Below are positions 1-56,048 of a stretch of DNA of 64,000 nucleotides, in pieces. Source of the DNA: an uncultured Planctomycetia bacterium (GTDB taxonomy: Bacteria; Omnitrophota; Gorgyraeia; Tantalellales; Tantalellaceae); the NCBI GenBank assembly GCA_964409365.1, contig CAYPCX010000002.1, positions 96,984-160,983 of the forward strand, read 5' to 3'. Below the pieces are notes generated by a model that saw nothing but the letters and a program-made list of their open reading frames with translations, made no database searches and was not told the DNA's origin. Within the stretch, counting starts at the first letter, position 1. Every line of letters begins with the position of its first letter. The position numbers were made by a program, and so were the translations under genes.

Positions 1-50
1 ACAGCACGCTAAGCCTGCGGCCCGCGACCGATAACCTGGCTGATTTCATA

Positions 51-6000: not shown

Positions 6001-9000
6001 ACGGCGACGGCCAGGTCGATTCGGACGATCTGGCCGTACAGCCGGACGGCGTGGTGGACGAAGCCGACCTGGCGTACCTGGACCTGGCCCGGGAATACCA
6101 GAGACTCGATTTCACGATAGAGGACCGCGATATACTCGCCGCGAACATTATCAGGGATTTCTACGCCAACGGTTCGGTAAAAGTGGACGAGGACGATTAC
6201 CAGGCGATAGCGGCTAATATGGCTTACGCCAGGGACGTGAACGCCGATATGACGGCGAGCGCCCTGATGGAACTGACGCCGGCGGAATACGAGAGACTTA
6301 TAACCATAGTGAACGCCGGCGGCATGACGGAAGACGACGTGGAAGCCCAGGGGCTTACCGGGCTGGACCTGAACGGTGACGGGCACCTGACGGTGGACGA
6401 CCTGGTGGTCACGGAGGGCGGCGTCGATTACCGGGACGCTTTCGCGGTAGAAGCGGCGTACGATATCCTCACGCAGCACGGGTTCAGCCTCGACGACGTC
6501 CATAAGGTAGACCTTGATTACGACGGGTTCATAACCAGCGATGACATAGAGCTCTTCGAGAAGGTCCTTGGATCGAGTGACCTCCTCGACCCGGCGGTCC
6601 AGCAGGCCGTGGAATCGCTCGGCAACATACAGTTCCAGGGCACGCGCATACCGGTAAGATGGATGAAGCGGACCGACATAAATGAGGACAACCTGATAGA
6701 TACCGACGACCTGGACCTTCTTGAAAGGGCCATGGACTATCACGCGGACGTGAACCTGGACGGCGTCGTGGACGGGAATGATATCGAGGCGATACAGGCG
6801 GTGATAGATTCCGGCGTGATGGGATTCACCGCGGATGAAGTGATAGCCGCCGACCTGAACGAGGACAGCAACGTCGATACGACGGACCTTGCCCTTCTCA
6901 AGGAAGCCGTGGCGCGCGTGTCCAATTATGACATGGACGGAGACGGCCTGGTGAACGGCCTGGACCTCCTGGTGATATTTGACATACTGGGCACCGATCC
7001 GGTCGAGGTCATGGGCGCCCAGAACGAAGAGGCGGAGGCGCTCCTGCAGACGATATACAGCACGGAGTACAAGGAAGACGCCGACGCCTGTGTCGACGCC
7101 ATAGAAGAGCTGATGACCGCTATGGAAAAGCTCAGGCTGCATTCAGCTGACATGGCCGGTCTCATGGGCGCGGATGACCCGCGTAAGCAGGAGATAACTG
7201 ACGGGATAGACGAGAAGTGGCTGGAGCTGTCCGGTATTTACAGCACGGCGGTGCAGGAAGCTTCTACGAAACCGGAAAGACAGCTCACCGACCTGGAAAC
7301 GAGCGCCCTGTACGTGCAGACGATAACCGGCCTTAAGACGGAGACCGGTTCCGCCCGGCAGGCGTCCGGGGCCGAGCATCTGTTGGAAGTGGCCCAGAAC
7401 CTGCTGGGAGAGATCGAGACCATCCGTACCGATATTCACAATACGGGTACGCAGGAAGAGATAGACCAGGTGGACGCCGATTACACGACCGCCAGCGCGG
7501 ATGTCGCGATAATAGAAGGCCTGGTAGGGGATTATAATACGGCCGAAAGCGAAATGGGCTCTATCCTTTCCGCGGCCGAAGGACTTATCGCCGAGCTGGG
7601 ATCCTATCTGGCCCTGGTGGAGGAAAGCAATGACGCGGGTCTTATCCTGGCGCTTGAAGGCCTGGCTTCAGAGGCGGAATACGACATGTTCGTGTATCTT
7701 GTCGGCGCGGCGGAGCTCAAGGCCGAATATTCGCAGAATACAGTGATCGCGGGCAAGGAAACGGAAGTCAACGCCGCCTCGGCCAGCGCGGTATCGCTCC
7801 TCGAAAGGATAAGAGAAGAAGCGGTAAGGGCGGTCATAGCGGGTCTGGATACGACCGTAAATGCAGAAGGCGAGCTTGAGGTCGAGGACGGCTTCTACCC
7901 GACAAACGAGCTCGACCTGGCCGCGATCGCTTCCAAATTCCTGGCCGGCCAGACGCTCACGCTCGAGGCGATAGCGAAAGAAGAAGAGTTCGTGGAATTT
8001 CTCTACGGCGCCTGCTTCACGACGGGACACACCGCCGAAGAGATGACAGCCGCCCTCAACAAACTTTTCGGGACGGGCGATTACACGACCAGGATGGAAA
8101 GGGAACACCTGGCGGAGGAAGTGCTTACCTCGGCGGAATTCACCGCGCAGACGATGGATAATTACGACTTCATGACCATCGTTTACGAGGTGTATCTTGC
8201 CGAAGAGGCCGAATACGGCGACATAATAGCGACTGTTTTGGACCTCAATACCGGCGGCATAACCCGTGAAGAGGTGATAGAAGCATACACCGTTACCGTC
8301 ACAGCGAGAAGGTTCATAGAAGCGGCGGAACGTGATATAACCGACGCCGAGTATGTCCGGATGGTATGCAAGACGTTCATACCGGGAGAATACACCACCG
8401 GCCAGGTGTACGACTGGGTACAGGAGATCAAAGATGAAGTAAAGACCAGGGAAGAAGTCGTGTTGGAGATCTCCGGCATAACGGATCCTGGCGATGACCT
8501 CCATTACGACATATTGAACGCGGCGGACCTGGAGATACTGGATTCCGGATGGAAGGTGTTAAGCGAGAACGATTCCGTCCTGGCGGATGCCGGGCTCGAG
8601 ACGGCAGACTACGCCGCGGAACTTATCGGAATAGACAATACCACGGTAGCGGGAGAAGGCGCGTTCGACGTCGACGTATATGTCGAGACCGTAAGACGCA
8701 TCCTTTCCTCGGAGGCGGAACTCGCCGAAAGCCGGCTGGAAGCGGTCAGCGAAGAGGCCGCCGCTTACAGTTACGCTTCCGCCGTCTATACCAGCGTGTC
8801 CGAACGGTGCAGCCAGGTCGAAGGGGCATATGACATGGTCGAAGAACTCTTCCCAGCCGTAAGCGGCATCTACACGAGCCAGGACCACGACCTCGAGGGG
8901 ACGATGGAGGGATGCTACAAGATATTCAAGCTGAACCAGCTTATCACTTCGGCGGTCGAAGAGAACAGGCAGCAGATAGCGCCGGAAGTGTACGAAGCGC

Positions 9001-12000: not shown

Positions 12001-15000
12001 CCGTGATGAACGGCGACTCGGCTATCACGCAGCTGGTATCCGCGCAGTCGGTCCTTGATGATGTGGATGAGAGAATAGAACTTCCGTGGAAACAGACGGA
12101 ACTGGAAGGATTCAAGCTAGCCGCGAAGCATCTCGTCGAAGAAGCTGAAGCGGACCTCGCAGAAGCCTACCTGAAAGCCGCCGAACATACCACGAGCGCC
12201 GTGGCGGAGACAATAGCGCGTCTCGCGCAGGATATCGTCAGCGACGGGTACGCTACGGCAGGAAAGATAGCCGCCCGGGCGGACCTGGCGCTGAACAGGA
12301 AGGACCGCAATTCTTCTCTCCGTGACAGGACGGAGGCGTGCAAAGAGCTGGCAAGGGTAGCCGGCATCCTGATAGGCGAGTACACCACCAGTCCGCAGCA
12401 TGGCAGGACCCTCATCTTCCTGGCCGAAAGCGCGAAGGAAGAAGCGGCCCTGGCCGCGCTTGAGGCGATAGAGACGTTCCGCACGGCGCCGCTTAATGAA
12501 ACGATCAAGGCGAACGCCCTGGAGATAAACGCGCTGAGCCGGGAAACGGCCGAGAAAGAAGCTTCCTCTAAGGAGAAGTTCGACGCGGCGTGGCTGGCCG
12601 AGATCGTACTTGAAGAGGGCGGCGATTTCACCATGACCGTGGCCGACGGTATATACACCACGGAAGTCTACAACCCGGCGGACGGCCATCTCCTTGAGTT
12701 CATCATGGTCAACAGGCAGCTGGTGCGGGTGATAGACACGGATAGTGCTGAGACAATAGAGGTAAATATTAATAATACTATGTTTAATATTAATACGGAT
12801 GGAAGTTCCGCCTGGAGGATCGAGAAAGAGGACGGCAGCGTCATAAGGCTGGTGGACAGGTACACCGGCCGCGCGACCATGCCCGGCCACGAAGACGAAC
12901 CGGAATGGTCGTGGAAGATCATGGATTTCGTGCTGGACCCGGCGAACCTGGACCTCAGCGAACTGGCGGAGGATATTACCGACTCGTTCCGCGAATTCAA
13001 GGCCGCCTCGCGGATAACCGAAGCCGTAAGTGATTTCTTCACCGCCGTGGCCGAGGCATACCAGTATTCCCTCAAGGAGACCCCGACACCGGAGGAAAGG
13101 GATGAGATCCAGTATTACATGCCGTTCATCCAGATGCTGCTCGTTGTTAACCCGCTCATCCTCGTGGCGGACGGTACCAGCACGATATGCTCCTGGCTGA
13201 TGTCGCAGGGCGCGGCGATAACCAACTGCGCCGTGAAGAGCCTCCTTGAGTATTTCACAGGGGAAGGCGTTACTATCGAGAAAGAACGCCTGGCCGCCGC
13301 GACGGCTATTTCAGATATCACGGCCGGCCTTGTGACCCCGGCCTCGGTCAGCGAAATAGAGACGAGTTTCTTCACCCTTAAGGCGGCGGCCGCGGCGAAC
13401 GATATCACGCTCCACGGCGTGAGGACGGGACTTGACGCCCTGGCTGAAAGGGACATGCCGGTCATCGCGGTGATCGAAGAGGCGTTCCAGAACCACGTGG
13501 TCCTGGTAAAATCGGTTACCACGACCGTGACCTACGTGTCGGACGAAATAGAGATCGTGGAAACGGCGGAAGAGTTCAGCGAGAAGTTCCTGGGCGTCGT
13601 GCTCGCTTCGGAAGAGGCGGACGAGGATGAAGGCGAATCGGCCCTGACCGATGAGGAGCTTCTGGATATCGCCGGGTCACTGGCCAACGTCCTCGAGACA
13701 AAGACAACGAATCTCGTGGAATACCTGACGTTCGCCAGGGACGAGATGCTGGACATCAAGCAGGCTACCACCCGCGCGATCAATTCCCAGCAGGCCACGG
13801 AAGCGAAGAACATAGCCGAAGCCATACTTTTCGAGATAGAACAGGACGCGGATTACGCGTCAAGCGAAGCGGCGAAGGAGAAGAACGCGGATAATGCCGT
13901 TATACAAAGCAATGCCGAAAAAGCGCAGGCGCTCAAGCAGGAAGCCCAGGCGATCTACGCCGAGATCTCGGCGATACGCGACGAGATAGCCCAGCTTGAA
14001 GCCCAGGCGCGCGGCTATGTCGCCTTCGCCAGGATCAGCCGGGACATGCTCGAGAGCATGCTCGCCGACACAGAGGACGCGGTGAGCCTCGTGTCTCTCG
14101 GGGTAACCTGCCTGGACAGCATCAATGACGTGAAAGACAAGATAGACGAATACTGCACGCTTTATAATTACAACACCACGCTCCTGGGTTACGCCACGGA
14201 AGTGGCCGGTTACAAGACCCGCGGCGAGGAAATAGTCCAGCTTCTCCGGAGCGCCTCGGACGAAGCCGTCAACGCGCGTTTCCTTAGCGAATCCGAGTAC
14301 AACCGTGCGGATGTTAACGGCGACGGCGCGGTGGACGAAAATGATATCGCCGATTTCGAGGCAGCCCTTAAGAGGATAACGGACCTGGACTCGGACGGCA
14401 AGATCACGGAAGACGACCTCAACAGGCTCAAGACGCTCCTGAGCTATATAGATTACAACTACTTCATGTCCAGGAGCGAGATATTGAAGGCCGATATAGA
14501 CGGTAACGGCACTATAGATAACGCGGACGCTTCGCTTCTTTCCGACCTGCAGAGCTATCGCGTGGATGTCAACGAAGACGGTTACGTTAACGAGCTGGAC
14601 GTCCTGGCCCTGGAAGAGGCTATAGAGAACAGTATCGCCAGCTACGGTACGGAACTCACGCGCAAGGAATACTATTACCACCCGGACAAGACAGGAGAGG
14701 ACGACAGGACCTATTACTCGCAGATGCCCCAGCACCAGGTCGATATAGCGTACGAAGTGGGCGTAACGGATGAATATGTGGGCCTGACCGGGGCCACCAT
14801 CACGTTCACTTTCAGCAATGTCGTGGACGCGACGGGGCTTATTGCCGGATATGAAGCCCAGCTCAATTTTGAGACCGGAGCCGTCGATATAATCAGGGTG
14901 TCCGATGAAGGCGTTGTCGGCACGCATGCCATAGCGGATCAGGTAGTGGACATATACGCCGAAGGGGAGAAGATAGGCGAAGCCACGGTGGATTACTTCG

Positions 15001-18000
15001 ACGGCATCTATACTTCCACCATACCCGGGGAGTATATCAGGCCGTATCTGAGCGAGGACAGGGACGAGATAATAACGGGTATTACCGGTCCCGACACGTT
15101 CGTGGAAGCAACTGAAGAAGCGAGGAATCTGGCCGTTACCTCGATAAGCGCCGAATCCGCCAGGGTGTTCGCCGAGATGACCGCGGAGTTCGCGGCAAGG
15201 GCCGAACAGTCCGCGCAGTTCTTTATCGCGAAGGGCGGGGAAACCGCGCATTACGAGCTTGCCATCGACAGGGTCCGGGAGCTTGCCAGGGAAGCGGAGG
15301 CCGCGGCGGACAAACTTGCCGCCGAAAGCGGAGTGGACGAACTCAAGACGCTCCTGGACCATCTCGTCGTCGAGACCGAGACCATGCTGGTGAACTTGAG
15401 GGCCAACGAGGACGTTGACCGCGACGGGACGCTGGATACAGAGGACGAGAACGCTCTTGCTGCGGCTGATAACACCACCTGGACGGCGTTCGGTTCATAT
15501 GATATCGACTTGGACGGCAACATGGACGTGGCTGAAGATTTCGACCATGACGGCGTGCTGGATTACTTTGACGACCTTAACGAGGACGGCACCCCGGACA
15601 TCGGAGAAGATGTTAATTATAACGGTGTTCTCGATGACGGGGAAGATATCGACGGTGACGATGAGATAGACCCGACCGAAGACCTGAACGGGAACGGCCA
15701 GTTCGACGAGCCCCTTGAAGACATGGACTCGGACGGCAATTTTGACGACCAGAACGAACTGCGCGGGTTCTCGGACCTTTCCGGTATCAGGTCGCAGCTC
15801 ATGTGCATACAGGCCAGTTACACGACGCTGAAGGATGCGGAAGAGAACAATTACAACCTGAAAGCCCTGGCCGTCGATAAACTCTCGAAGAGCGTCTCGG
15901 AGCTCATGAAGGCCACTACTGCCCATGAAGCCCAGGCATTATATGAAGCCATGATCAGCACGCCGACGGTGAATGACGTTTTGCGCGAAGGCATTGATCC
16001 CGCCGAGTTCCTGGAATATATGAGGGAAACGGATACGGCCATAGACGACCTCCTGATATCCTATTTCGATAACTTCGTGCTGGATACCGACGGCCTCGAG
16101 CTCCGGGTGGAGATAGAACAGCTTGAAGCGGAGATGGAGACCGCGTACCTGGAAGCCATCGGTTCGATAAAAGCGGAAGCGACCGCGCTCGTTGAAAGCG
16201 CGGAAGAGGCGGCTATATTCTCCGTCATGGATACGGAGAAGGTGCTTGAGATCTACGCGGGAGGCGAATTGATCGGCACCGTTACCGTCGAGGACGGCGC
16301 TATTACGGCGCAGAACCTCGGTTACAACTGCCTCGCGAGCATCGATTCGGGAGGCATGCTCAGCATCAGCGACCAGGACGGGACACTTATCTCGCAGGGC
16401 AGCGTTATGAGTTACATCTCCGAAGACGATCTTAAGGCTGAGATCTCCAGGGCCCAGGATAACCGCAAGACCATAAACGAGAGCCGCGACACGCTGATAA
16501 TGATGATGATGAGCACGTCCAATTCCGACGTAACTGTCGCCATAGGCAACTGCTTCAGTATGGTGGACGAGATGCTCACGGATATCAACAATTTTATCCT
16601 TGAGCTTATCGGCACGGTCTCGACGGCCAGGGGCGCCTCGTATGAAGAAAAAGCCAGGCTTTACCTGAATATCGCCGCCGCCGCGGCCGTAGAAGTGGAA
16701 ACCTTGAGGCAGGATATCATCCAGACCGAATACAGCACGATGACCAACAAGGAAGCCGTCCAGGACCTTAAAGCGCGCCTGGCCGCTCTCCAGGCCAAGA
16801 GGAACGAGATACTGGTAGCGATGGACGGGGTCACAGGGGCGTACTTCTCGGTAGACGAGGCCAGCCGGGTAGACTTATCCAGCATGCTGGGGAGCGTCGG
16901 GTACATGCTGGACTATGCTATGGAGACGATAGTGGTGGTAAGGGACACGCTTGTCCTTTATGAAGGCGCCCTGGTAGATGAAGACCTTGACGATGACGGC
17001 CGTCTCGACGTGGACGAAGACCTCGACAATGATGCCAGGCTTGACCTGTACATCGAGGATCTCGACGGCGACGGGCATCTCGACGGGTTCGAGGAAGACG
17101 TCGACGGGGACCGCAACCTGGATATAAACGAGGATCTCACGCGTAACGGCGCCTGGGACGTGACAGAGGACCTCAACGCCGACGGCGACAGGTGGTTCGA
17201 CGTGAACGAGGACATAAATGCCGACGGTACTTTTGATACCGGCGAGGACCTCGATCATGACGGGAATTTCGATAACGTCGATGAACAGGCGCTAGCCGCT
17301 AGTGGGTATACCACCGTAGCCGGGGTTTATACTGACGAATGGTACGCGCACGAGCCGGGTTGTGACCTGGACGATGACGGCCGCATGGACCTCGGCACGG
17401 AAGACATTGACGATGATGACGTGTTCGATCTTACCGAGGACCTGGACGGCGATGACAATTTTGATATCACTGACGAAGAAGCCCTGGCCGCGGGCGGTTA
17501 CACGACCACGACATTGGCCAATAACGAGTATACCACGGTGTGGTACGCGCACGAGCCCGATTGCGATATCGATGACGATGGTTTCATGGACCTCGGCATA
17601 GAGGATATAGACTCGGACGGCAACTTCGACGACCTGTTCGAGGACATAGACGGAGACGGCAAGATGGACCTCGTGAACGAGAAAGATTTCGATAACGACG
17701 GCGTGATGGATATCGTTCCCGAACTGGATCTTAACGACGATGCCGTGCCGGATAACGAGATCGAGGTTGAAGTGGAGGGCGTTGTATACATCGTTCTTGC
17801 CGAGATAGACGTCGACGGGGACAACCGTCTCGACACGGTCAACGAAGATATAGACGGCGATGAAAAGTTCGACAGGGGAGAAGATCTCGACTGGGACCTC
17901 GCTTATGACGCCACCGAAGACCTTGACGGCGACACCGTATTCGATACCGGTGAGGATATAGACCACGACCGCAATTTCGATATCATAAATGAAGCCGCGC

Positions 18001-21000
18001 TGGCCGCTGCCTGGTATACCACGATCGCGGGCCAGTACACGAATGTATGGCACGCGCACGAGCCCGACTGTGACGTTGATGACGACGGCAACATGGACCT
18101 CGGCATAGAGGATATAGACGGGGACGGGGAGTTCGACCTCACGGAGGACCTCAACGCCGACAACAATTTTGATACAGGCGAGGATATCGATCACGACGGT
18201 AATTTTGATACGGGCGAGGACACCGACCACGACGGCGAGCTTGACGGCGGCGAGGACCTTGACGGTGATGGTGAGCTCGACCTCACCGAGGACCTTGACG
18301 GCGACGGGAACTTCGATATCACGGATGAGGAGGCGCTGGCCGCTGCCTGGTATACCACGGTCGCCGGTCAGTATACGAATGTGTGGTACGCGCACGAGCC
18401 CGACTGCGACATAGATGACGATGGTCATATGGACCTCGGCATAGAGGATATAGACTCGGACGGTAGGTTCGACACGACGAACGAGGATATAAGCTCGGAC
18501 GGTATAATGCAGTCCACCGAGGACCTCGACGGTGACGAGAACTTCGATATCGTGGATGAAGAAGCGCTGGCCAGGGCGGGGTACACCACGGCCGGCGGCT
18601 CTTACACCACCGTCTGGATCGCGCACGAAAGCGGCTGCGACCCGGACAATGACGGCCGCATGGACCTCGGTATAGAGGATATAGATAATGATTCGAACTT
18701 CGATGAGGTGTTCGAGGACCTCGACCTTGACAGGCATTTTGACAGCGCGAACGAGGATATTGACGAGGATACCACGTTCGACGAATTCAACGAACTGGCG
18801 ATAGCGGGCGCCGGTTACACGACGCTGAGCAACGATTTCACCACTGTCTGGCACGCTCATGAGCCTGATTGCGACCTGGATGACGACGGTTACATGGACA
18901 GGGGAGAGGACAAGAACGCCAACGGCGCCTTCGAGCTGGACGAAGACATCGACAACGACGGCCACCTCGACGTGAACGAGGACATTGACGGAGACGGCCG
19001 CCTTGACGTCGACGAGGATATTAACGGCAACGGCGTGCTGGACAGTTTCGTCGACTTCTATACCGAAGCCACGGGTATATACACGACGTTCACCGACCTT
19101 ACCTGGGACGCGGGCGACCTGGAAAGCATACAGGAGGCAAGAAGGGTCATCTTCGACGGCCTTGACAGGCTGGTCGTCATTTACGACATCATAGACCCGG
19201 CACAGCAGGCCCAGAGGGATAACGTGGATTCGTTCATCGATTACGGTGAGGACCTCCTCGAAACGCTGGGTGATGACGCGCGGGATATCTATATCTCGGA
19301 AGCCCAGGACAATAACGACGCGCTCTTCGATGAAGTGGAAGAGATTTACTCCGCGGCGGTCGCTTTTCTTGACAGGAGCTACACGGATATTACCATGGCC
19401 CGGGAGATGAGAAAAGCCGCCCTTGACGCGGTAGACCAGATCCTCATGCTCGAGAACCTGCCGAGCCTGGGAGCTTCATACAGTACGTTCAAGGAGACCG
19501 CCGCCGGTTACAGGCATGACCTGGAAGAGAGGCTCGATGACATAGAAGACGTCATAGACGCCACCCTTGAGAACAAAGCGGGTACGTACTACCAGGATAA
19601 GATGACCGAGTATAATGACCTTCTCCTCCAGCTGCGCGAGAAGAAACAGGAATACGAAGAAAAATACGCCAACAAGGCGGACGACACGCTGTACAAGCTC
19701 CTGAAGAGGCTGGAACAGGCGTCCGGCCTTATACTTTCCGACGCCGAAGGTACGAGCGCGGTCGCCGCGATCGCCGCCAGTGAGGAAGAATACGGCCTGG
19801 TCCAGCTCCTGGAAGGCGTATACCTGCAGGAGACCAAGGTCGCGGCCTGCGATGACCTCATAAGCGCCGAGATCGAGGTAGCCAGGTCGATATTGAGGGG
19901 CGAAGACGTAGACGATGACAACGTCCTGGATGTTGACGAGAAAGCCCTGGCTGAAGCGGGATACACTACGCAGGGCGGCAGCGGCGAATATACGACAGTA
20001 TGGATCGCGCACGATCCGGGTTGCGACATGGATGACGACGGGCACATGGATAAAGAGGAAGACCTCGACGGTGACGGTGAGATAGACAGCTTCATGGACC
20101 TCCTGGACCAGAACCCGGATATGACCGCCCTTGTCGACCAGATTGAAGGATGCGCGCAGGCATCTGAATATGCCCTGACAAAAGCCCAGGCCATATCGCT
20201 GGGTAATCCTAATAATGAGCACCTGAAGAATAAGGTAAGTGCCCTCGCGCGGGAAGTGGCCGATCTCAGGAACGCGGCCGATCTCATGAAGGAAGTCCAG
20301 ACGGTCGTGGAAAATACCGCGCGCGTGGACGACCTTTCCGACGCCATAGACGTTTACGAGTCGTTCATGACAACTACGGTCACGAAAGCCGCCACAGCGG
20401 ACGATACCGACAAGGAAGCGTATCTCTCGGCGCTTGATATGGCGGAAGAGGGCCTGGAAGAAGCCCAGGATACCGTCCTGAGCGATTCCATGGAGGCCAG
20501 CGACGCGACCGACCAGATCGTGGTGATAGCCAGCGCTATCAACGAATATGTGGGACTCTTCGATTCGTTATTCACCTCGCAGGACCTGGCCGACATGGTG
20601 AACTTTGTCAGGGGAAGGGCCTCGGCGGCCGTTATAAGCGCCCAAAGCGCCTCTTCTAGGGCTATAGAGTATACCCTTGACCCGGACGCGGCGGAGACCG
20701 AAGAGCTTGAGGCATGGGGCGACCTTCTGAACGCCAGGTCCGATATATCGACCAGCTGGGACGCGTATGAACAGGACACCGGAGACCCTGTCCTGGCGCT
20801 CGATGATTACGCGGAAGCCGTCCTGGATTATGAGGAAGCTTTCTATACCATCCACTCGGCGAGGCCCGGCACTTCCGATTACACGACCGCGATGAACGAT
20901 ATCGCCGGCCTTGTCAGCCAGGAAAGGAATTTGGCGAAGGAACTCGCCAATATCCAGGAGACACTGACGCAGGGCATCCTCCCGGTCCTGAGAGAGGAGT

Positions 21001-36000: not shown

Positions 36001-39000
36001 CCACCGAGTTCGAGTCCGCGCTCCGCGAGATGGGCATCTTCGGCATAGCGCTCCTGAGCGGCCTGGACGTAGGCGCGGTAATAGGAGGGACACCGGTAAC
36101 GCGCGAGATCTCATCTCGCAGCAAAGACTCGAAAGAGAAAGAAAGCGAGCGCCTCTCGATGCTGGATGTGAAGCAGCAGGTATCCGCGCGGGACCTGGCA
36201 AAAGCAGTGCGCCTGACAGGGAAGAGCAGGCCGGCCACATCTGAAGATGTAGGTGCACGGGGAGGCGACGAACCCGGGCCCGGAGGCCTCGGTTTTCGCC
36301 TTACGGAAGGGCTGAAATACAAGCGTCCCGGAGGAGAACGCGCCGCAGAAGAAATGCCCGCGGAATACAGGAAGTACATGGGCAGTCTGACCGCCGGAGC
36401 GGCAAGCGTTGAACAGGGCTTCCTGGCGGAACTCGCCATGGACCCGGCCACGCTGGAAAAGAAAATGAGAAAGATAAGGGACGCTTTCGCGGGCGCGACG
36501 GTGTACGCCGCGATCGCCGGAGCGGCGTACAGGATAGGCGCATACGTGATGTCGGAATTTGACAAGAAAAGGATCGCTTATAGGAACAAATTAAAGCAAG
36601 AGAAAGCCCGGCGGGAACGGGCAAGCTTCCTGGACAGGATAGCGATGAAGGTCATGCAGCTCATAGAAGAAAGCAAAGAGAGGAACCAACAAGCAAAAAG
36701 GAGGGAATTAATAGCCAAAGGTATTACTGACGAAGAGGTGATCAAGAAAGAACTTGCAAAGGTCAAGGCTGACCCCGGCGCCTATACTTTTGACCGTACC
36801 AAGGGAATATATCGCATCCAGCCGACGGAAGATATCGAGGAGGCGATCAAGGAGCTGGATAAGGGATCCGCCACGGAAACGGTCCGGGAAACTCAGGCCG
36901 AAGAGCCCGTTGAACCCGGTATCTTTTCCGCGGTCGCGAAAGCTTTGCGTAAGGCCTTGGAGAGCATAACCGAGAAACTGATGGACCTGGTAGTCCCGTT
37001 ATGGGAAGCCGCTCCCATCAAGGTAGGGGAATTCCCGGCCAAACGTTTCATAGAGATGGCAGTGGGAGTGCCGCTCTCGTTCCTGGAAGGCCTTTCCAAG
37101 ATGACGGAGGTCCTGGAAAGGGTCAAGATAAGCACGGCGTTGGACAGGGAAACAGCTCTCCCGGAGAAGACTAAACTCGACGAATGGGGCGAAGAGTATG
37201 AGGTCGATATCCCCGATGCCCGCGACGTAGGAGAACGTGCCCGGGTCACGACGGAGATCGAAACGGAAGCCGGGAAAGTGACCGTTACGTTCGCCGGGAT
37301 AGAGGCGCAGGACGGCCTCGCGAAGACTACCGAGATCACCAGGAAGAACGCCGAGGTCGGGAAAGCGGTAGGAGCGGTGGAAGGTGAAGAGGGCTACATA
37401 TTCACGAGCATGATCATAGAAAAAGCCAGCAAGGACGGCGAGGTCAAGAGATACGTCCTGGATGTCCGGGGGTTCATACCGGCAGGGGACGTGGAGAGAA
37501 CGGGCGCGTTGAGCCTGGAAATGAATATGAAGGATAAACTGGTGAAAGAGATCGGGTCCTGGCTGAGTTCGGCCCAGAAGGCAGAAGGCGATGTCAGGGA
37601 AGGAGGAGCGGGCGAAGCGGGCGGCGGAGATGAAGCCAAGGCGACTGAACAGGAACTGATCAGGGACGTAGAAGCGATCTCGAATATCCTCTCCGGTATG
37701 CGCGTCAAGGGGAAGGTCGACATCATGACGGGCAAATTCGCGTTCAGGGTCGATATTGCCGAAGAAGGGGCGCGTGTTACCGGGGTGGGGATCAGAAAGG
37801 CGGCCGGGACGCCGATCGTGTTCGTACCGCTCGTAAGATCGATCGATCTTGCCAGCAGGGGAGATATGGACTCGCTGGAAAAAGCTCTCGGCGCGTTGCA
37901 GGATTTCTCTGCTACTAAAGACTTTGATGCGTTACTGGGAGGAAAAGGAACCAAAGACAAAGACGTTGTAAAAGCGGCAGAGAAGCTCCTGGACATATTT
38001 GCCGAGTTTGGCCTCGGTTCCGCCAAAGTCTGGCTGAAAGACCTTGGCGTTGTCCTGGAATCCCAGCTTTCCAACAGTAAGACGGTCGAATCATACAGGA
38101 TAACGAAGCCGATAGATATCTTTGCCGCCGATGTGCCGGAATTTCGCGGCGCGGACGTGCCGACTATCTCGATCGACGTCAGCAAGGGAGAACTCGAGAA
38201 AGTGCTTACCGATCTCCGGAAGGATCTCGAGGGTATCGTAAGGGTCGACGAAGGAAAAGTGCAGCTGAATACGGAAGCATGGAATAAGATCGCCAATGAG
38301 CTCGACCGCGAGCTTGCGGTCGAGCTTGGAGTGGGAGATATTGCCGTCAAGCTTGGAATGAGAGCTGGGACCGAAGTGGTCGTTACCGAGGTCCGGGCGG
38401 GAGATGCGGCGGCAAGGTTCAAGGCCGGGGAAAGAGTGATGATCGGCGAGGGCCTGGTGGACCTGGGATGGCTGGTGACCGTGGCTACACGGGCCGATCT
38501 CAGGGCTGAGGGAGCGGCGGGACCGGCGGCTACCCTCATGAGATTAGGGGAAGTGCTGGCCGCTCTCGGGCTTGGCCTGGGCGCGCGCGCGCCTGTCGCC
38601 GAAGTTACGCTGGTGACCCCGGGAGGATTCGAGACGAGGATGCGCGTCCGCTTCGAAGGAGTACGCGGCGACATTAAATTACGCGTCACCCATGTCATGA
38701 CCAAGGCCGGGGAAATGCGTGAGCTTGGCACGGGTATTCAGGTCGCCAGGGGCGCCGAAGGCGACAAGATGCTCACGGGATTGGCGGAAGCGGCCGCTAA
38801 GATAGATTTCCGCGTGGAAGGCAAGTTTGAAGAGACCATCAAAGCGTTACGTATTCTGGGCGAAGCGGGCGTGGAGACGGGCATGTTCGTCGGGAAGACG
38901 CTCGTGGAACTGAAAGGGGAAGGGCTCAAGCCGGTGCCGGTAGCTACGGCGCTCAGGATGGAGGTTGGCGGCGAGACGCGCGTGTTCAGGCTGCCGCAGC

Positions 39001-45000: not shown

Positions 45001-48000
45001 ACATGTACGCGGCGAAAGAGCAGACGGGCAAGCTGGCCGAGGAGATGGCCGCGGCTTTCGGCGTAAGCAGCCTGGACAGGGACGATTTCGTCGCCCTCGC
45101 GACAGGCAAGTTAATGGATAGCCCCGCTCTTGCGCGGATGATGAGCGAGCAAACCCAGGAGCTCGTTAACATGTTCGAATATCATAAGGACGAGGCGACC
45201 GGTGAGATGGTCTACGGTTCGGAGACGATCGGAGGAAGGATCGGAGGAAGGCTCGGATGGTGGGCGGGGACCATAGATCATTACAAGCTCCAGATAGCGG
45301 GTGTAGCGGTCGGCCTGGTCTTCCTGCCCGCAGGCGCGATGCTTCTTGCCGCGGGTGTCGCGGCCGGGTTCAGCGCTATAGCCCATATAGGTATAAAGAT
45401 ATGGTCTAACGTGAGATACGGAAGGAGCTGGCATGCGGGTACCTTCATATGGGAGCGGGGAGGCGGATGGACCGACTTTGAGTGGGGATTCTTCAAGGCG
45501 GTCGGGGAAGGGGCCTTTAACGGCGCCGCGTTCTATGGAGGTATAGGAGTTGTAAGCAAGGTCGGGTTCGTGGGAACGTTGGTCAATAATGCTTATTCCA
45601 TGGGCAAGCTTGCTCCTGTTGTTTTTGTGGGGGCCGGGGGCATGATCAATGTCACGTGGAACATAGCGAGTGCGGAGTACGCGAACCTGGTAGGAGGAGG
45701 AAACGAGTTTTACACCAGGAGCAGGTTTGTCGGCGACTTTATAAGGGGCGGCGTGCTCGGTTTTCTTGTTTACCTTGGTTGTGGTAACGGGGCCAGCGCG
45801 GCGGCTACGGTAGGAAGCAAGATAGGAACGATCGCACTCGGCGCCGGTATAGGCGCTACAGGCTTTGTGACGGCCGACCTGGCGCAGGACTGGATGGAAG
45901 GGAAGATCACTTCCAAGGAAGAGTTGGGGAAACGCCTGCGGTCGAGCAGGACCCTGGTAAGCGCGCTTACAGGCGCGCTCTGGGGCGCTATGGCAGTGTA
46001 CGCGGCGACACCCGGGAAGGGCTTTGGCCAGGATAAGCTGAGGGGAGCTATCGCAAAAACGGGCAAGCTGGCCAGTTCCGGTAGGGCCATGGCTTGGGAG
46101 ATGGCCAAGGGCGCCGCGCATTGGCCTCTGGTAAGCATGTCGTTCGGCATTATCGGCGGCGTGGTCAATACCGTGTTTGATGCGATCAGGACAGGGTGGA
46201 ACAAGTCGGGCCTGCTCGGGGCTATCGGCCACGGCCTCCACGCGCTGGTCGTGTTTACGGACTGGAAGACGGAGAGCGGCCACCGCATGTTCAGCGGAAA
46301 AGGCCTTTTTGAGATCGCGCAGCACGGTATCGAAGGTTTCAGGACCGGTCTTTACATGGGCCCGTTCGTGGGTCTCTTCGGCGGTATCAGTCAGATGCCG
46401 GGGGCGATGGAAGCTAAAGCAGCTGAAGGAGTGGGATTGTGGGCTTCGGTAAGCGCTGGAGCGGGCAAAGCAGTGACCAGACTGGGTAAAACACTGGGTA
46501 AAATATGGGCAGGGGTAACGAAGGTAGCAGGAACGGTAGTCAACAAAGAAGCCGTACTTAACGCGTGGACCGCAGTAACGGCTGCAACAGGCGCTGCAAA
46601 AAAAGCTGTGTTAGGTGGTATGTGGAACGCGGCAAACGCGATAGCGAATAATTTCGCGACAGTGATGACGAACGCGGCATCCAGGTTCGGGATGAAGATC
46701 GCCGGCACTGCGGAGACGATCATAAAACTGAAGTTCATAAACAAGGCGCTTGAGGGTCTGGCGGCAAGGGACAAGTTCGGTGCCAGCAGGTTCGGAGGCG
46801 CGGGACTGTCGCAGGGCGCCACTTCTGTCCTGAGCTGGGCCATGCTTTTCGCCATACCGTCGGTCGTGGCTTATGTCCACCAGCGCAGGCAGCTGAGAAA
46901 GATAGCACAGATCCAGGAGAAATCGAGAGGGGCGGTTACCCGGAGCGTACACAAATTGCTTGATGGGAAGGCGAAGGAAATAGAGGCTGCCGGTAAAGCG
47001 GCATACGATAAATCAATGGAAGATACCGATGGTAAAGGTTTTTCGAGAGGATACCGGGAAGCGCTTGCAGAGAACCAGCGCCAGATCGCCAAAGGTGTGC
47101 GGATAGATTGGGCCATTCGCGAAGCAAAGCAGGAAATGGAAAAACGTACCAGTCCGAAGGAGAAAGAGGCTCTCAGGAAGCAGGGGCTGGCCAAGTGGGA
47201 AGGCATAACGACCACGGAAAGCGTGATCACCGAGGCCATAGAGAGCTATGTTAAGAAGATGGGCATAACTCCCCAGCAGTTCTTGGCCGCGGTAGCAGGG
47301 GTTGATTCTGCGATGCAAAGTATAAAAGCCGGCGAAAAAGCAAAGATGAAACCGGAAAGAATGGAAGAACTCAAGAAAGAAGCGGAAGCGCGCGGAAAAG
47401 AGATGCTTGATTTTCTGGAAGCTACCTCGCAATCCGGATTCAGTCTTTTTAACGCCATTGTTGATCCAGGGGTTAAACCGGGCGAAACAAAGGCGGAAAA
47501 GGCGGCATATGAAAAGGCTAAACAACAAAAGATTCAGGAACTACGGGGCAAACTCGGTAATGTCGGAGAAGCTGCCAGTGAGGGGCAAAGGGCGCAGTTC
47601 AGAAAGGAGATAGAGGCTGGAATTAACGCAAAGGCAAAGGGAAATGCTAAAATGCAGGCCCAGCTGAACAAGGAACTCGGGCCCAAAGGATCAGGTGTGA
47701 CCGGCTTGCAGGTTCTTACCACGGCTATCGAGACGTTCGTCAGGATACATGCATATACGGGCGGGAAATGGAACCCCCTGTGGGGTAAAGAAGCGCAGAA
47801 GGGCGGGCAGTTCAGTGCCGTGGTTGCCGGGTTATACTCTGCGATCGACTGCAACCTGCAGGGTACAAATGCGAGAGGCACTATCATAACCCTGCCTTGC
47901 GGCCAGGGTAAGACTTTCGTTAATGTGGCTCTACAGATGGCTTTCGGGACATGGCTGGTGGATGTGGCTCCATCCACTATTACCGACGCGGAAGGCAAAG

Positions 48001-51000
48001 AGCGGAAGATAGGCGCCGATTACAAGAGCGTGACGGACCTCCGGTTGATGATAGTCGTCGATACCGACGCGAACGTACAAAAAGATTTTAATATGACAAG
48101 TATTGAAAAGGGTTCGCTCGCGGAAGTACTGGTGCAATTCTGCGGCGGAAAGAAGAGCTTTATTAAGGCGGTCACGGACAAGAACCCCATGACCGATGGC
48201 AAGGGCATCTTTGTCTTGTCGGCAAAGACACTGCTTTCCACGTTCTACAATTCGCCTGACAAGCTTGAAGGGTTCAATCTTCTTACCGTGGACGAAGTCG
48301 AAGCCGTACTGCAATCCACGAACCTTACCTACAGCGCGGCTATCAACATGTTCGCGAAACAGAGCGGCGGCGCGCAGAATTTCCTCCTCCAGATGGACGG
48401 CATGACAAAAGAGGCGGCCAGGATGGTCAAGAACGCGTGGGCCGGGGGCGCGGGTTGGAAAGATTTCAATGTGGATAAGAGCACCAGCGAAAGATACCTG
48501 ACGGAAGGGGTTCATAACCAGATTGTGAATAAGCTATTGGGTAGGGCTGACATGCAGGGTGTTATAGCGACTGTCGGGGGCAAGGCTATGGCGGAGATAC
48601 TGCTTACGACTTACCTTAACCGTGCCACTCACATGTTGACCTGTAACCAGCATACCAAGGGTGAGTTCACCATCAATTATAACAAGGACGGCACGGTGAA
48701 GTCTTACACCATGCATGACAGGTCCACCGGGGCTGACATGGAAAATACCCAGTATGGTGACGCGTGGAAGGCCCTGGCCATCCATCACCGCGGCCAGTTA
48801 GAAGGTGAGGCCAAGTTGTCGACCAGCCAGGTGCAGAAGCAGACCGAGCGGGGATTGAACGCGTTCCTGTCTGTGACCAGTCGCAGTGTGAGTATCGGTC
48901 AGGCCCTTGCCCATGTGAACAAGCATTCGGCCAGCGGCGGAGATATCCTTGTAGGCCTTACGGGTACCGTAGCCGGTTGTAAGTCGACTCTGGCCGTCAT
49001 GGGTGTAAACCTGGTCCAGCTCGGCACCAGTACCTGGAACAGGGACGCGGGTTACCGGTTCTATGGTGATCATAGCAGCATGTTATCGGCTGCCGGCAGA
49101 GATATGTTGAGCATGGCAAAACAGAACGCGAACGGAAGAAAACTGGTGGTAGGGGCCTTCGGTACTGTCGATAAGATGTTGGAGGTCGCCAACAAGATGT
49201 CAGGAAAGAAACTGACGACGGCAGACGTGCTGAGGCGCGGATTTCTTGAAGTAAAGGTAGGCGGTCAGAGGATATGCCTTTACACGGACCCGAATGCGTT
49301 CATCGCGCAGAAGAATAAGGTCACCAGTAACAGAAAACGCATGAGGTTCGGTAACGCCATCCATCTTATAGCCCAGCTTGGTACGGGTTCGAACGCCTTT
49401 GAAACGCAATGGGTGGGCTTGGACAAAGCAGAGACAGGGTTTGATCCCCATAAGATAAAGACAGGTAAGAAAGGGGTATATTTTACAAGCGTTGAGATGT
49501 ATACGACCGAAATAGGTACCTCCAGCGCCATGACGCAGCAGGAAGAAAGGATAAACGCTAACGGCAGGGGCGCGGGGAATGTCCACCACTATATAAATGT
49601 AGCTGAAGTAATGGCAGAAAATGCCAACAGGACCCTTTTGAGCAAGGTTGTTGAGCAAACCGGTGGATTCGACAAAGAGATGAACGGTTACAGCAGGTCC
49701 GCCCAGTTGTTCCAGGAGTTCATGGAGAACAATAACAACAACATAGATACCGCCCAGGCGAGAGGTGCAGTCCAGGTATTGCAGCAAACCGAGGATTTTC
49801 GTTTAGGTGAAGTGATGCATACCCTTTATGGTTTGCCGGTGTTAGAGACGATCCCGGCAGGTGCTCGGGATACTGCGATCAACAGGTTCAGCCAGGCTGT
49901 GGAAGAAGCCGGTGGTATTGAAGGTGTAACCGGGGAGGATATGGATAAGATCTCCGAGTGGCTGGGGACGGAGTTCGGCGCTGAAGTCGGGGAAGGTTTC
50001 GCGGAAAGCCTTGGCGGCGCGTCTGAAAGCCTTGGTCTGAGCCCGGTCGAGACGTTCGGCCTGGTCATGGACGCTCATAAGAACCTGGCCGTGTCGGATA
50101 TCATGGGTATGGCGAAGGATGTCAGGGCACAGGCGGACAGTAAGACCATGATACCTCGCGTTACGGCCGGAAGGGAAAGCAGTTCCTTTATCGACAGCGG
50201 GTTGGCCGGTATCGAGTTTGACGGAAGGAATATAGAGACCGAGGTCGAGGTCGCGGGCAAGCGGGAGACCTATAAAGGCAGGGACGCGGTATCCAGGATC
50301 ATCGCCAATGCCTGCGCGTCCAGGGGCATGGACGTCTTTGAGGCGAATGGGACGTCATTTATCGCGGCTGAGCGTACCGGAGCTCTCCTGGGGCACGTGC
50401 AGGTAGGTAACGGTGTCCGGGACGGTATAGTTACCGTTGACGCCGAAGCGGTTTCCGGCCTGGCCGGTGAAGTTATCAGGGCCCTCCTGGAGGACAGGGG
50501 TATCGAACTCGACGCGGGCCAGAAGATGAAGGTTTTGGATATATTGCTGCAGGTAGGCATATCCCACGAGATGAGGCATGAGGCCAGGGATGCCAGCGCC
50601 CATGTCGGCGGCAGCCAGAGAGAGGAACTGATGCTTACGGTAGAGGACGCCGCCATGCTGGCGAACCTCATGCATGATGCCGGTATCGTTGAGGCAAATC
50701 CCGAAGGAGTTGAAACCCTGCGCGCTGTTGTCCCGGCGGCACTGAGAGGTCTGGTCATGCGCGCCGGCGCTGATGAACGAAAGAGCAAGTTCATCCAGGT
50801 CCTGGACAACGTTATGGCCGATAACGCAGTAATGCAGGCGCTCATGACCGGCCAGCTCAGCATAGGCATTACCAACGGCCAGCTTACTCTTGCCGCCGCC
50901 AAAGGCGCGAGCGTGGATATCATAAAAGCCGCGGCCGGGACTATTGTCAACGCGGCGAGCGCCGTGTGCGGCGTGAACAGCCTGGCGGCCGGCATGGACA

Positions 51001-54000
51001 TCAACATCGCCGCGGGGGCCGGAGTGGTCAATGACTTCCAGGCTTTTGATAACATGGTTTCCAGTATAATGGGCGAAGTGCGGGAAGGCGGGAATAATGT
51101 CAACATCGCTTCCGTAGCCGCTAACATAAAGGGAGCTGATATCGACGTGAAGATGGATACCGCGAGCAAAAAGGTCGATAACGTCGCGGTTTCCCGCCTG
51201 GGCGTGAGAATGCAACAGGCGCAGATGGGCAGGACGGTCGATCTGCAGAACGTCCTGGGCAGCGTGTACAATGCCGTCGATAACGTTATCATGACGGGCA
51301 TGGTGACTAACGCCCAGGACATGGTGAACGCGGTATCCGTAGCGAGATCGGTCCTGGGCGCGGAGCTTGGGATGGAAGCTATGAACTGTGACCTCACTGT
51401 CGAGATGCTGGACGGGACCGAGCTTACGGCAAGCCTGGATACAAGGGGCAATGTGATGAGCGCGATGGCCGCCCGGACCCGCGAAGGGGTTCGCGTGAAG
51501 CAGGACCAGCGTGACGGGAAGATAGATATCGATGGAGTGAATGATCTCGTTGTCGCGGCTAACAAGATAGCGGCGCGTTTCGGGCGTGTAGCCGCCGGCC
51601 GCGATCTCGCCAGGGCGGGCTTCGCGTCAATGGCAAAACTGCGTAACATCATCGGCACCGGGAACGCGGCGAATTGCGCCATGACCCTCACCGCTCTGAC
51701 CGGGACGGAAGTGACGCTTGTCACCGACAGGCGCGGCATGTTGACGAGCATGACCGCCATGGCAAGAGGCGTGAGCATGCAGAAGATGAAGATGGACGGC
51801 ATGATGGACCTCGAAGCGCTTAAGAGAGGGGCCAGTATGTTGAACGGCCTCGTTAACGCGGCCGAGACGGCAGGCAGGCGCGGCATGGTGACCCATAGTA
51901 ACCAGCTTGGCCGCGCGGCTATAAGGGCGACGGTCAGCATGATGGAACATATGGGCGCGGAGAACGCGGGTGATTGTACCGTGAAGGTCACGGCTATTAA
52001 CGGCACCGGGGCCATGATAGCCACCAATGAGCGTGCCGGTGTCAGGAGCGTAGGCGCGATCAGAAGCGGCGTGACCATGGAACAGCTGAGCCGTGACGGC
52101 AGGGCGGACAGTAGTGTGATAGACAGCCTCGTAAGCGCCGCGGAAACTCTCGACGCGAGCGGCAAGACGATGACCGGTGTCCAGGGGCTTGTTAACGCGG
52201 CGGAAGCGGCAAGGTCCGGCCTGCGGACGGATATCGGCGCCCAGGCGATGGACTGCATGGTCACGGTCGAGACCCTGAGCGGGACAAAGCTCACCGCGGT
52301 CACGGACATGACGGGTAACGTCACGGATGTGTCGGCGGCCCGCGAAGGAGTGATAGTCAGGCAGGCCCAGATAGAAGGCAGGATAGATGTCCAGAGAGCG
52401 GGAGAATTAGTTAATGCCGCGGAGACGATAAACGCCAGGGGCGCGGTAACGGACAGCCGGCAGCTTGCCGATACCATGAACAAGGCCATGCTGGATCTCA
52501 GGACGAGTGTGGACGGCGTGGTTAACATGGCCAACAGCGCCATTACCCTTACGGCGGCTAACGGCACGGAACTCGTCGGTACGACCGACAGTTTCGGGAA
52601 TGTCGCGAACGTGACCGCGACAAGCGGCATATTACACATGGAACAGATGCAGTTGGGCGGAAGAGTGAATATTGACAGGGTGAACAACATGGTCAATGCC
52701 ATAGAAGCGGTCAGCCCGGATATCAGCGTGACAGAGAGCAGAGAGCTCCCGGCGGCGATGGATAAGGTCATATCATACATGATCACGAGGGGTTTCAGGG
52801 ATATTAAGGATATGGCCAATAGCGCCATCACAATTACCGCTCCCAGCGGCACCGAATTGACGGTCATGACCGAGGAAAGAGGAAGCGAGATCGTGAGGAC
52901 CGGTGTCAGGTCCGGAGCGGTCCGGATAGAGCAGGCGTGGCCTGACGGCATGTTTGACGTTGAAGTAGCCGGTCGTACCGTGGATACCGCGGAAGCTATC
53001 GGCGCCGACGCTGCCCTGACCCGCAGCGATGAGCTCGGAACTGCGCTGGCCGCGGCGTTCTCGCGCTTAGGAACAGGTCTCGGAGTAGGGGAGAACATGG
53101 CAAACACCGTGCTGACCGTCACGGCCGTGAACGGGACCAAAGCCGCGGCGCTGACGGACGATCTGGGGAGGTTCGATAGTGTAGCCGTTTCGAGCGGAAT
53201 GATAAAGATCGAACAGGCCCAGGTCGACAGGAAGGTACGCGTGCCGGGGATAAACGGCCTTGTGAGGGCGATCGAGGCCGATGCCGGGCTTACCAGGATG
53301 GCTGACAGCCGCCAGCTCGGCAGTACGGCCGTTTCGGTCATTTCTAACATGAGGACGGTCCTCGATGGCAAGGAGAACACGGCCAACAGTATCGTGACCG
53401 TCATGGCCCCGAGCGGAACGGGGGTCTCGGTAAGCATGAATAATGACGGTGATATTACCCGCACGTTCGCGACGCGCGGCGGTATAAGAATAGAGCAGGC
53501 GCGGCTTGCGGAACATCTGGACAGCCGGGATGTGGACAGCCTGGTGAATATTGCGGATGCTGCCGGTCTTGCCGGTCCGGTCGCCGACAGTAGCGCGCTT
53601 GCCGAAGTGGCCGCGGTGAAGATAGCGGGCTTAAGAAGCGACATTGGCGCCGGTGAAATGGCCAACCGCACTATCGCTTTTATTGCCGAGAACGGCACGG
53701 AAGCTCAGGTAACCACCGATGATCAGGGCATGGTGGACCGGGTGGCTGCCGGGCACGAAGGGGTTCGCATGGAACAGGCCCGGCCCGGCGTGAGTGTTGA
53801 TAATGAGGCGCTGAACGGTCTTGTCGGCAAAGTGGAAGCGTTGGCCGGGATGAGAGCGGCTGACGCGATCAATGGCGCGCTTGACTTCGCCCGCGAGACA
53901 GGAATTAATACGGAATTAAGCTTTGACCTTGTTATGGATATACGGGTCGAAGCCGCCACAGTTGACAGGGGTCTGGGCCGGTTAGAGGTTATACACGCAA

Positions 54001-55961: not shown

Positions 55962-55974
55962 TGACAGGTTTGGC

Positions 55975-56045: not shown

Positions 56046-56048
56046 ATG

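Follow-up and report, generated by a model that had tools for sequence, protein, structure and literature searches.

The protein analysed here comes closest to the dockerin-type giant proteins that West-Roberts et al. (2023; bioRxiv 10.1101/2023.11.21.568195) defined in Omnitrophota, very small bacteria with a predatory or parasitic life. Proteins of this class carry dockerin, EF-hand and TSP3 repeats, C39-like domains and long unannotated stretches, their N-terminal part is mostly without transmembrane (TM) helices, and their SecA domains lack the scaffold and wing domains. In the terms of that survey, a 'giant' protein has at least 30,000 aa and a 'large' one at least 10,000 aa. The same work treats the Archaeovorins, dockerin-free proteins with TM helices throughout that contain glycosyl transferases, methyltransferases, NUDIX and HEAT/TPR domains and for which a role in attack on other cells was proposed. 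A later catalogue (Nielsen and Lui, 2026; bioRxiv 10.64898/2026.06.07.730766) lists 916 Omnitrophota proteins of at least 10,000 aa from one collection of 229 genomes, the longest catalogued protein reaching 147,155 aa. Dockerin-bearing class 3, which corresponds to the dockerin-type class of 2023, accounts for 21 of these proteins, 15% of the catalogue is without a match in nine InterProScan member databases, and 80% of its sequence clusters are singletons.

Proteins of such size put translation, folding and export to the test, and those of Omnitrophota are believed to let the cells attach to other microbes and attack them. We analysed a 64,000-nucleotide stretch of DNA (the window) that most likely carries the 3' 56 kb of a true protein-coding gene from an Omnitrophota bacterium, encoding a dockerin-type large or giant envelope protein. 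The protein is an added member of the published class. With hundreds of comparable Omnitrophota proteins already catalogued, it leaves the picture drawn by the 2023 and 2026 surveys unchanged. What it contributes is a nearly sequence-unique member of the rare dockerin-bearing class, one with unusually clear divisions between its parts. An extremely acidic part, presumed to lie outside, ends in a sharp charge switch at a candidate helix, and beyond it come a compact membrane region and a SecA-like motor that is seen by structure comparison only.

A 56-kb reading frame that is coding throughout

3..55961, + strand: giant ORF, frame 3, its 5' end cut off at the start of the window; 18,652 codons and TAA

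The TAA at 55959-55961 is the first stop in frame 3 after nt 3, leaving 18,652 codons open, or 18,636 if the length is counted from ATG51. The base composition gives a per-codon stop probability of 0.041, corresponding to one expected stop per ~24 codons, and log10 P(no stop) for the giant ORF is -338, a chance of ~1e-338. The remaining two forward frames contain 26-87 stops per 3-kb segment, that is, per 1,000 codons. GC by codon position (~0.60/0.37/0.72) is constant across the giant ORF when measured in 3-kb segments, in every one of which G occupies codon position 1 at a frequency of ~0.44. This uniform composition indicates that the entire ORF is coding in one frame. An earlier, sequence-only reading of this DNA had called the 56-kb ORF genuine and beyond chance, and the stop statistics and the single uniformly coding frame bear this out. 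Its statement that other stop-free runs reach at most about 3.4 kb does not hold, since a 7.7-kb run occupies the same frame at 56298-64000, where it runs off the window. That the protein would rank among the largest of bacteria holds generally but is nothing unusual within Omnitrophota, given the 916 catalogued proteins of at least 10,000 aa, up to 147,155.

The gene continues upstream of the window

A search with aa 1-1,000 against 5.8 billion proteins found only three relatives (P0001-P0003), partial proteins from Candidatus Omnitrophota MAGs with 50-56% identity. P0001 is collinear over aa 386-1,094 and P0002 over aa 645-2,318. In P0003, residue 459 pairs with window residue 1 at 50% identity, so that homology reaches the window edge, and the 458 additional residues before that point contain one further dockerin. 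The same protein has Ile at the position of Met17 of the window, and ATG51 is preceded by no Shine-Dalgarno match (ctggctgatttcataATG). Because of these three observations, the giant ORF very probably extends upstream of the window, as judged from sequence, and its actual start, with any export signal at the N-terminus, lies outside the window. The total length is therefore at least 18,652 aa in the window plus at least ~458 upstream by homology. Within the window, aa 1-1000 are acidic (D+E 20.6%, K+R 7.0%), and hydropathy found no hydrophobic leader at the in-window N-terminus. The upstream continuation, the missing Shine-Dalgarno sequence at ATG51 and the acidic, leaderless N-terminus had each been anticipated from the letters of the DNA. 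The alignment of N-terminal homologs yielded no tblastn-confirmed relative locus in GTDB species genomes or JGI metagenomes.

An acidic part with Ca-binding modules

3..6977, + strand: beta-rich modules (motif RNADGTFTF...TGxVTL) alternating with dockerin/EF-hand Ca-binding modules; aa 1-2,325 (Pfam, internal repeats, P0001-P0003)
8310..8474, + strand: DUF4214; aa 2,770-2,824 (Pfam PF13946, 35.9 bits against a cutoff of 23.2)
13341..13619, + strand: peptidase C39-like domain; aa 4,447-4,539 (Pfam PF03412)
14271..14612, + strand: two further dockerin-like pairs; aa 4,757-4,870 (Pfam Dockerin_1; EF-hand loops at aa 4770, 4794, 4831 and 4855)
15393..20207, + strand: thrombospondin-type-3-like Ca-motif zone; aa 5,131-6,735, D+E ~26% (self-BLAST, DNA repeat families D1-D7)
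20208..36029, + strand: acidic non-repetitive region without a recognisable domain; aa 6,736-12,009, ~5,300 residues

The first 12,009 residues carry a net charge of -1,669, or -13.9 per 100 aa. Dockerins are among the recognisable modules of this region: Pfam Dockerin_1 matches across the first 5,000 aa with an E-value of 9e-43, the best stretch being aa 468-526 and others lying near aa 1,710-1,737 and 2,248-2,302. Matches occur in five of the six 1,000-aa slices of aa 1-5,700, for a set of several modules between aa ~446 and ~4,870, and Pfam recognises EF-hand fragments as well. The giant ORF contains 25 strict EF-hand-type loops, and PDB sequence searches with all four of its quarters returned dockerins only (1daq, 2mte). 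These are type I dockerins, a point of likeness to the cellulosomal dockerin proteins and scaffoldins of Clostridia, and on sequence grounds they would imply Ca-dependent docking to a partner module. In contrast to the clostridial systems, Pfam finds no cohesin, glycoside hydrolase or CBM in the giant ORF or in the gene that follows it (ORF2, below), the phylum is a different one, and the C-terminus of the giant ORF is membrane-integrated with an ATPase.

Further along, between aa 5,131 and 6,735, Ca motifs of 12-13 residues (E-D-x-D-x-D-G-x-F-D) sit inside larger units of ~77-110 aa that contain W-x-AHEP-x-CD, with up to 65% identity by self-BLAST. The EDxDxDGxFD motifs look like TSP3 Ca sites, although Pfam TSP3 has no match in the giant ORF. 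Most of the DxDxDG motifs (57 of 62) fall before aa 7,000, 33 of them in aa 5,000-6,500, and they are most crowded in aa 5,131-6,735. Beyond this zone, aa 6,736-12,009 gave no credible Pfam match at E<=1 in 1,000-aa slices and no PDB match, and a word-indexed search with aa 9,001-11,000 found no homolog among 5.8 billion proteins. Permissive Pfam thresholds applied to 1,000-aa slices of aa 5,651-18,652 produced noise only (coiled-coil families, CagE, E>1e-3).

By self-BLAST, 16% of residues are internally repeated, in segments at aa 270-1,526, 2,223-2,325, 4,757-4,870, 5,131-6,735 and 16,967-17,960, and 84% of the protein is non-repetitive. This distribution runs against two statements of the sequence-only reading. 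Ca-binding repeats, said there to make up the bulk of the protein, occupy about a third of it, roughly aa 1-6,735. Nor are conserved motif families recognisable along the whole length, as had been claimed, with so few residues repeated and the DxDxDG motifs concentrated in the first 7,000 aa.

The C39-like domain is a marginal call: its score passes the cutoff of 22 bits when a 1,000-aa slice is searched (23.2 bits) and falls short of it with a 5,000-aa slice (20.5 bits). The PF03412 match spans only model positions 38-131, and a PDB sequence match for the domain was not found. Cys4409 (ITNCAVKSL) and His4498 (QNHVVLV), picked by eye, are candidate catalytic residues.

A charge switch and a compact membrane region

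36030..36092, + strand: candidate single transmembrane helix MGIFGIALLSGLDVGAVIGGT; aa 12,010-12,030 (Kyte-Doolittle 1.86; predicted from hydropathy only)
45288..46877, + strand: Gly/Ala-rich polytopic membrane region; aa 15,096-15,625, ~9-11 hydrophobic segments (hydropathy peaks)

The composition of the protein changes abruptly at aa 12,010-12,030, from -13.9 charges per 100 aa before this segment to -1.1 after it, and both aa 12,031-15,095 and aa 15,626-18,652 are nearly balanced in charge. The candidate helix at the switch is flanked by acidic sequence on its N-terminal side and by more basic sequence on its C-terminal side. Before aa 12,010 there are weak hydrophobic peaks only and no strong segments. 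The polytopic region is closed by a basic flank (HQRRQLRK...) with 10 K/R in 35 residues, and it is homologous to N-terminal parts of P0004 (29%) and P0007, two relatives of the ATPase described below. An AF2 model of the membrane region is all-helical, with a pLDDT of 34.6 that makes it unusable for fold assignment.

Since the basic flank follows the last helix, the positive-inside rule would place the C-terminal ~3,000 residues, comprising the ATPase, nine tandem repeats and a C-terminal domain, in the cytoplasm, a topology that we infer from hydropathy and charge. The sidedness of aa 12,031-15,095 depends on the number of helices and is uncertain. An export signal or membrane anchor had been presumed to lie upstream of the window. 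The start and the N-terminal signal are indeed not in the window, but a membrane anchor is present inside it, near the C-terminus.

A cryptic SecA-like ATPase follows the membrane region

47793..49922, + strand: cryptic SecA-like (SF2 DEAD-type) ATPase; aa 15,931-16,640 (structure search)

Directly after the membrane helices, on the side marked as cytoplasmic by the basic flank, the giant ORF contains a Walker A motif (PCGQGKT), a Walker B motif (VDEVE, in LLTVDEVE) and a GLTGT motif (in LVGLTGTVAG), with an inserted domain between them. PCGQGKT, LLTVDEVE and LVGLTGTVAG resemble SecA motifs I-III. A phmmer search with aa 15,901-17,100 against 1.84 billion representatives found five relatives, with E-values from 1e-89 to 2e-22 and 25-28% identity to the giant ORF. 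Three of the five come from Candidatus Omnitrophota/Omnitrophica, one from Chitinivibrionales and one from JGI/IMG, and an alignment of the family keeps CGxGK[TS], DExE, GxxGT and later motifs. Because two of these relatives, P0004 and P0007, match the membrane region too, membrane region and ATPase form a conserved module.

Profile methods do not place this domain in a known family. The region has no match to SecA_DEAD (PF07517) or to NCBIfam SecA, even at E<=10 in a dedicated Pfam slice, and NCBIfam has no match in the last 4,252 aa of the giant ORF. A PDB search with a profile of the ATPase family reached XPB only, at the level of the Walker A motif, and hhalign of the family against the SecA region of ORF2 was insignificant. 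An AF2 model built on the family alignment (pLDDT 60.7) was searched against PDB with Foldseek, and the 19 best matches were all SecA or SecA2, with E-values from 1.7e-12 to 1e-6 over ~700 aligned columns; DinG, RIG-I and XPD rank behind them. Identities in these SecA matches are 9-15% and TM-scores are ~0.3. On the strength of this model, we regard aa 15,931-16,640 as a SecA-like SF2 ATPase, a designation that stops short of membership of SecA proper. With the SecA translocase (PF07517/PRK12904) it shares Walker A and B, the 'G-[LM]-T-G-T' motif and the domain inserted between. It differs from SecA in being missed by Pfam, NCBIfam and the PDB profile search and in being embedded in an 18,652-aa chain.

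C-terminal repeats and a conserved end domain

51276..53888, + strand: nine tandem ~95-aa repeats of an undescribed type; aa 17,092-17,962 (self-BLAST, 36-42% identity)
53889..55958, + strand: C-terminal domain ending ...EADVAY; aa 17,963-18,652, conserved with the C-terminus of the Omnitrophota protein P0009 (...EADVAF)

The nine repeat units align with a period of 93-100 aa and found no match in Pfam, in PDB or among homologs. A word-indexed protein search with aa 16,653-18,652 returned no relatives. Direct alignment with P0009 shows the C-terminal domain to be homologous. The Smith-Waterman score is 158, against 52 +/- 7.6 for 200 shuffles (z = 14), the alignment is collinear to the last residue, EADVA[YF], and the stop-proximal codons align in DNA.

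A second large gene downstream

56328..64000, + strand: ORF2, second large gene; at least 2,557 aa, running off the window; ATG 56328 with a good RBS

ORF2 has a single hydrophobic anchor near its N-terminus (residues 69-92 of the stop-to-stop frame from nt 56298) and a divergent SecA_DEAD domain at aa 1,424-1,766, counted from ATG 56328 (PF07517, E 7e-18; NCBIfam PRK12904, E 7e-20). A similar arrangement is found on a 101-kb contig (L003) of the Omnitrophota MAG GCA_049644745.1, which carries the giant-gene homolog P0009. P0009 has 5,853 aa in a frame that is open to the contig start and is thus probably truncated. The ORF that begins 185 nt after it encodes 9,423 aa and shares 42% identity with ORF2 over the first ~1,000 of them.

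The window is without marker genes, so the assignment of its host is based on relatives and synteny. All three N-terminal homologs, three of the five ATPase homologs and the gene order and intergenic DNA of GCA_049644745.1 point to an Omnitrophota-type organism.

Comparison with the dockerin-type class and the Archaeovorins

The giant ORF resembles the dockerin-type class in its Omnitrophota relatives, its several Dockerin_1/EF-hand modules, its Ca motifs that look like TSP3 sites, its long TM-free N-terminal part, its C39 peptidase-like domain and its large domain-free stretches. T2SS and Tad loci have been reported beside genes of this kind. It also combines the membrane-free N-terminal part with a C-terminal polytopic region and a predicted SecA-like fold, as in the class. 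It departs from the class in several respects, however. The 18,652 aa in the window fall below the 30,000-aa threshold for 'giant', although the full protein is very probably longer. The ORF is without Pfam TSP3, discoidin, DUF1080, ILEI and GNAT domains and is far less repetitive, with 16% of residues in repeats. Pfam misses its SecA-like domain, which has diverged too far, and the second SecA_DEAD domain is carried by a separate gene downstream. The protein is nearly sequence-unique, identity to its best relatives being 50-56% in aa 1-2,318 and 25-28% in the ATPase.

The Archaeovorins of Velamenicoccus archaeovorus and its relatives share with the giant ORF the phylum, membrane-associated giant ORFs, and C39-like and divergent SecA DEAD domains. 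We rejected an Archaeovorin identity because Pfam finds none of the Archaeovorin enzyme domains in the giant ORF.

A model for display and export, and its alternatives

We propose that the acidic Ca-binding part and the part encoded upstream would form a scaffold for adhesion or assembly on the outside of the cell, where the dockerins could engage partner modules carried on the surface of the same cell or by prey or host cells. Anchorage in the cytoplasmic membrane would come from the helix at aa ~12,010, the polytopic region or both. In the cytoplasm, the SecA-like motor, possibly acting with that of ORF2, might help to export or handle the giant polypeptide, and the C39-like domain may cleave the precursor into separate parts. 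Self-assisted export by the SecA-like motor or motors is thus our suggestion from the architecture, and a role in adhesion to prey or host, or in cell-wall attack, may be presumed by analogy with the literature on the class, as the domain searches turned up no catalytic domain for such a role.

A bolder version, which we regard as speculative and rather doubtful, would make the membrane domain, the cryptic SecA-like motor, the C-terminal domain, ORF2 and the leader that precedes it a dedicated, self-encoded translocation machine. Such a machine would move the more than 12,000 acidic residues through the membrane, either independently of the housekeeping Sec system or as an adaptor to it. If true, proteins too big to be exported in the usual way would have an autotransport route of a new kind.

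The alternative that fares best is a polyprotein precursor, cut by its own C39-like peptidase, and perhaps by others, into many separate extracellular, membrane and cytoplasmic proteins, in which case no single giant protein would ever be at work. The location of the C39 peptidase-like domain midway in the extracellular part and the sharply different compositional and functional zones of the chain speak for such a precursor, and West-Roberts et al. (2023) raised the same possibility for the class. We consider it unlikely, as the analysis identified no cleavage motif and the C39 domain has a marginal score and a catalytic Cys that is a candidate only. Processing of this kind is compatible with, and not exclusive of, the display model that we favour.

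An acidic Ca-binding repeat protein could also be a type I-secreted giant adhesin of the RTX/BAP type (like LapA, SiiE or MpIBP), exported C-terminus-first by an ABC/C39-type transporter and retained at the outer surface. The very acidic character of the giant ORF, its many Ca-binding DxDxDG motifs and its C39-like domain all fit this description, the last because C39-like domains occur in the ABC exporters of type I secretion systems (West-Roberts et al., 2023). The details argue strongly against it. RTX nonapeptides (GGxGxDxUx) and LPXTG motifs number zero across the giant ORF, the Ca motifs are of the dockerin, EF-hand and TSP3-like kinds and are limited to the first third, and the protein is 84% non-repetitive, unlike BAP or RTX adhesins. 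The charge-balanced C-terminal 6,600 residues, with a polytopic membrane region and a P-loop ATPase, likewise misfit a type I secretion signal. An adhesin of this type is accordingly very improbable.

We give equally little credence to an assembly artefact, in which several genes would have been joined by a chimeric, collapsed or mis-joined assembly with the frame kept by chance. Giant genes are error-prone in metagenome assemblies, both false splits and local errors having been reported by West-Roberts et al. (2023). Moreover, three public contig collections (genome, metagenome and viral) do not contain the exact 60-mer with which the window begins and so offer no independent copy. Mis-joins would, however, almost never keep a frame over 18,652 codons (P ~1e-338), and composition by codon position is uniform. 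The longest DNA repeat in the window measures 268 nt, with 71% identity, and the tandem repeats consist only of 36-nt units in ~2 copies; with repeats so short and diverged, collapse or a repeat-mediated mis-join is unlikely. Homolog alignments, obtained with aa 1-1,000, 9,001-11,000 and 15,901-18,652 as queries, cover 21% of giant ORF residues, and independent fragments of relatives run collinear with the giant ORF in three stretches, aa 1-2,318, aa 15,159-16,921 and the final ~700 residues. Synteny with another genome extends, in addition, from the end of the gene through the intergenic region into the next gene.

Three further candidates were rejected: a recoding artefact, because stop reassignment would shorten and not lengthen an ORF read with table 11; an NRPS/PKS megasynthase, because domains of such type are absent; and a phage or plasmid origin, which is without support.

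The intergenic region

56049..56079, + strand: 13-bp G+C-rich hairpin with TTTAGCTCTTT after it, a candidate intrinsic terminator for the giant gene (RNA fold)
56150..56327, + strand: conserved promoter/leader region of ORF2 (DNA blocks common to L003)

The putative terminator hairpin lies ~90 nt past the giant-gene stop, and the fold of 55955-56100 has an energy of -61 kcal/mol (z = -4.1). A consensus terminator scan did not call this hairpin, owing to its weak T-run. Rfam has no match in the intergenic region or in the window as a whole. A promoter-like GTGATA-18-TATAAT sequence at 56197-56226 lies in an A+T-rich stretch upstream of ORF2. The window and L003 have several intergenic blocks in common, namely GGTTTAAAAAATTyAGCTTTT, GTGATATACT, a T7 tract, ATTTAATAAG and the RBS. 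Together with the synteny, these blocks shared with GCA_049644745.1 show that the two large genes are conserved as a pair, along with the control region between them, and pair and leader provide handles on the export and regulation of these proteins.

Conserved DNA between the two large genes

The two large genes of the window, the giant ORF and the ORF directly downstream of it (ORF2), are separated by DNA that can be aligned with the intergenic region of a related Omnitrophota locus (L003, GCA_049644745.1).

55968-56140: extra segment of ~175 nt, missing from the related locus
56150-56327: conserved intergenic DNA, aligned with L003:17600-17767, with identical blocks in both genomes
56298-64000, + strand: ORF2, ATG at 56328, at least 2,557 aa, continuing past the window edge

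The identical blocks are GGTTTAAAAAATTyAGCTTTT, GTGATATACT, TTTTTTTGG, ATTTAATAAG and AAGGTG. Their retention, despite flanking proteins that are merely 27-42% identical between the two genomes, suggests a promoter or 5' leader element kept in both; Rfam returned no match to 56150-56327. Within the extra segment, two copies of CTGCCAGCTACCAGC, starting at 55977 and 56019, form a perfect 15-nt direct repeat, and a 13-bp GC hairpin lies at 56049-56079; the segment may be an inserted terminator or small repeat element.

The downstream gene and related loci

In ORF2, a hydrophobic segment lies at the N-terminus and aa 1,424-1,766 form a divergent SecA_DEAD domain; the homologous protein of another Omnitrophota MAG reaches 9,423 aa. 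Hydropathy alone would predict an extracellular location for this SecA-like ATPase, a placement that we judge implausible. In composition, ORF2 (measured over 56001-64000) has a G+C of 0.50-0.53 and a GC3 of 0.61-0.64, compared with about 0.56 and a higher GC3 of about 0.72 in the giant ORF (1-56000).

A single fragmented Omnitrophota MAG encodes homologs of both the N-terminus of the giant ORF as seen in the window (P0003, NCBI locus tag WBD17_04405) and its ATPase module (P0005, WBD17_07820), and probably holds an orthologous giant gene broken across many short contigs. A further homologous large protein (P0013, 6,804 aa), in the Omnitrophota MAG locus L004 (GCA_043813055.1, contig JBDRLM010000035.1), has a frame that is open to the contig start.

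L004 20689-30435: genes downstream of P0013, encoding a transposase of the Y1 type, a protein resembling apolipoprotein N-acyltransferase, and a polyketide synthase of 2,224 aa

Repeats and antisense frames of the giant ORF

The presumed cytoplasmic tail of the giant ORF carries a tandem array.

51276-53888, + strand: nine tandem ~95-aa repeats, aa 17,092-17,962

Their consensus is ...MANSAITLTAxNGTELxxxTDxxGNVxxVxAxxxGVRMEQAQ..., and searches against Pfam, PDB and for homologs gave no match; they appear to form a repeat family not yet described.

Opposite the giant ORF, the - strand contains long stop-free runs of up to 3.4 kb (for example 10297-13731, 38559-41210 and 53031-55442), all sharing one low-stop antisense frame with 1-14 stops per 3-kb window. 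Most probably these runs are not genes and simply mirror the strong codon bias of the sense strand.
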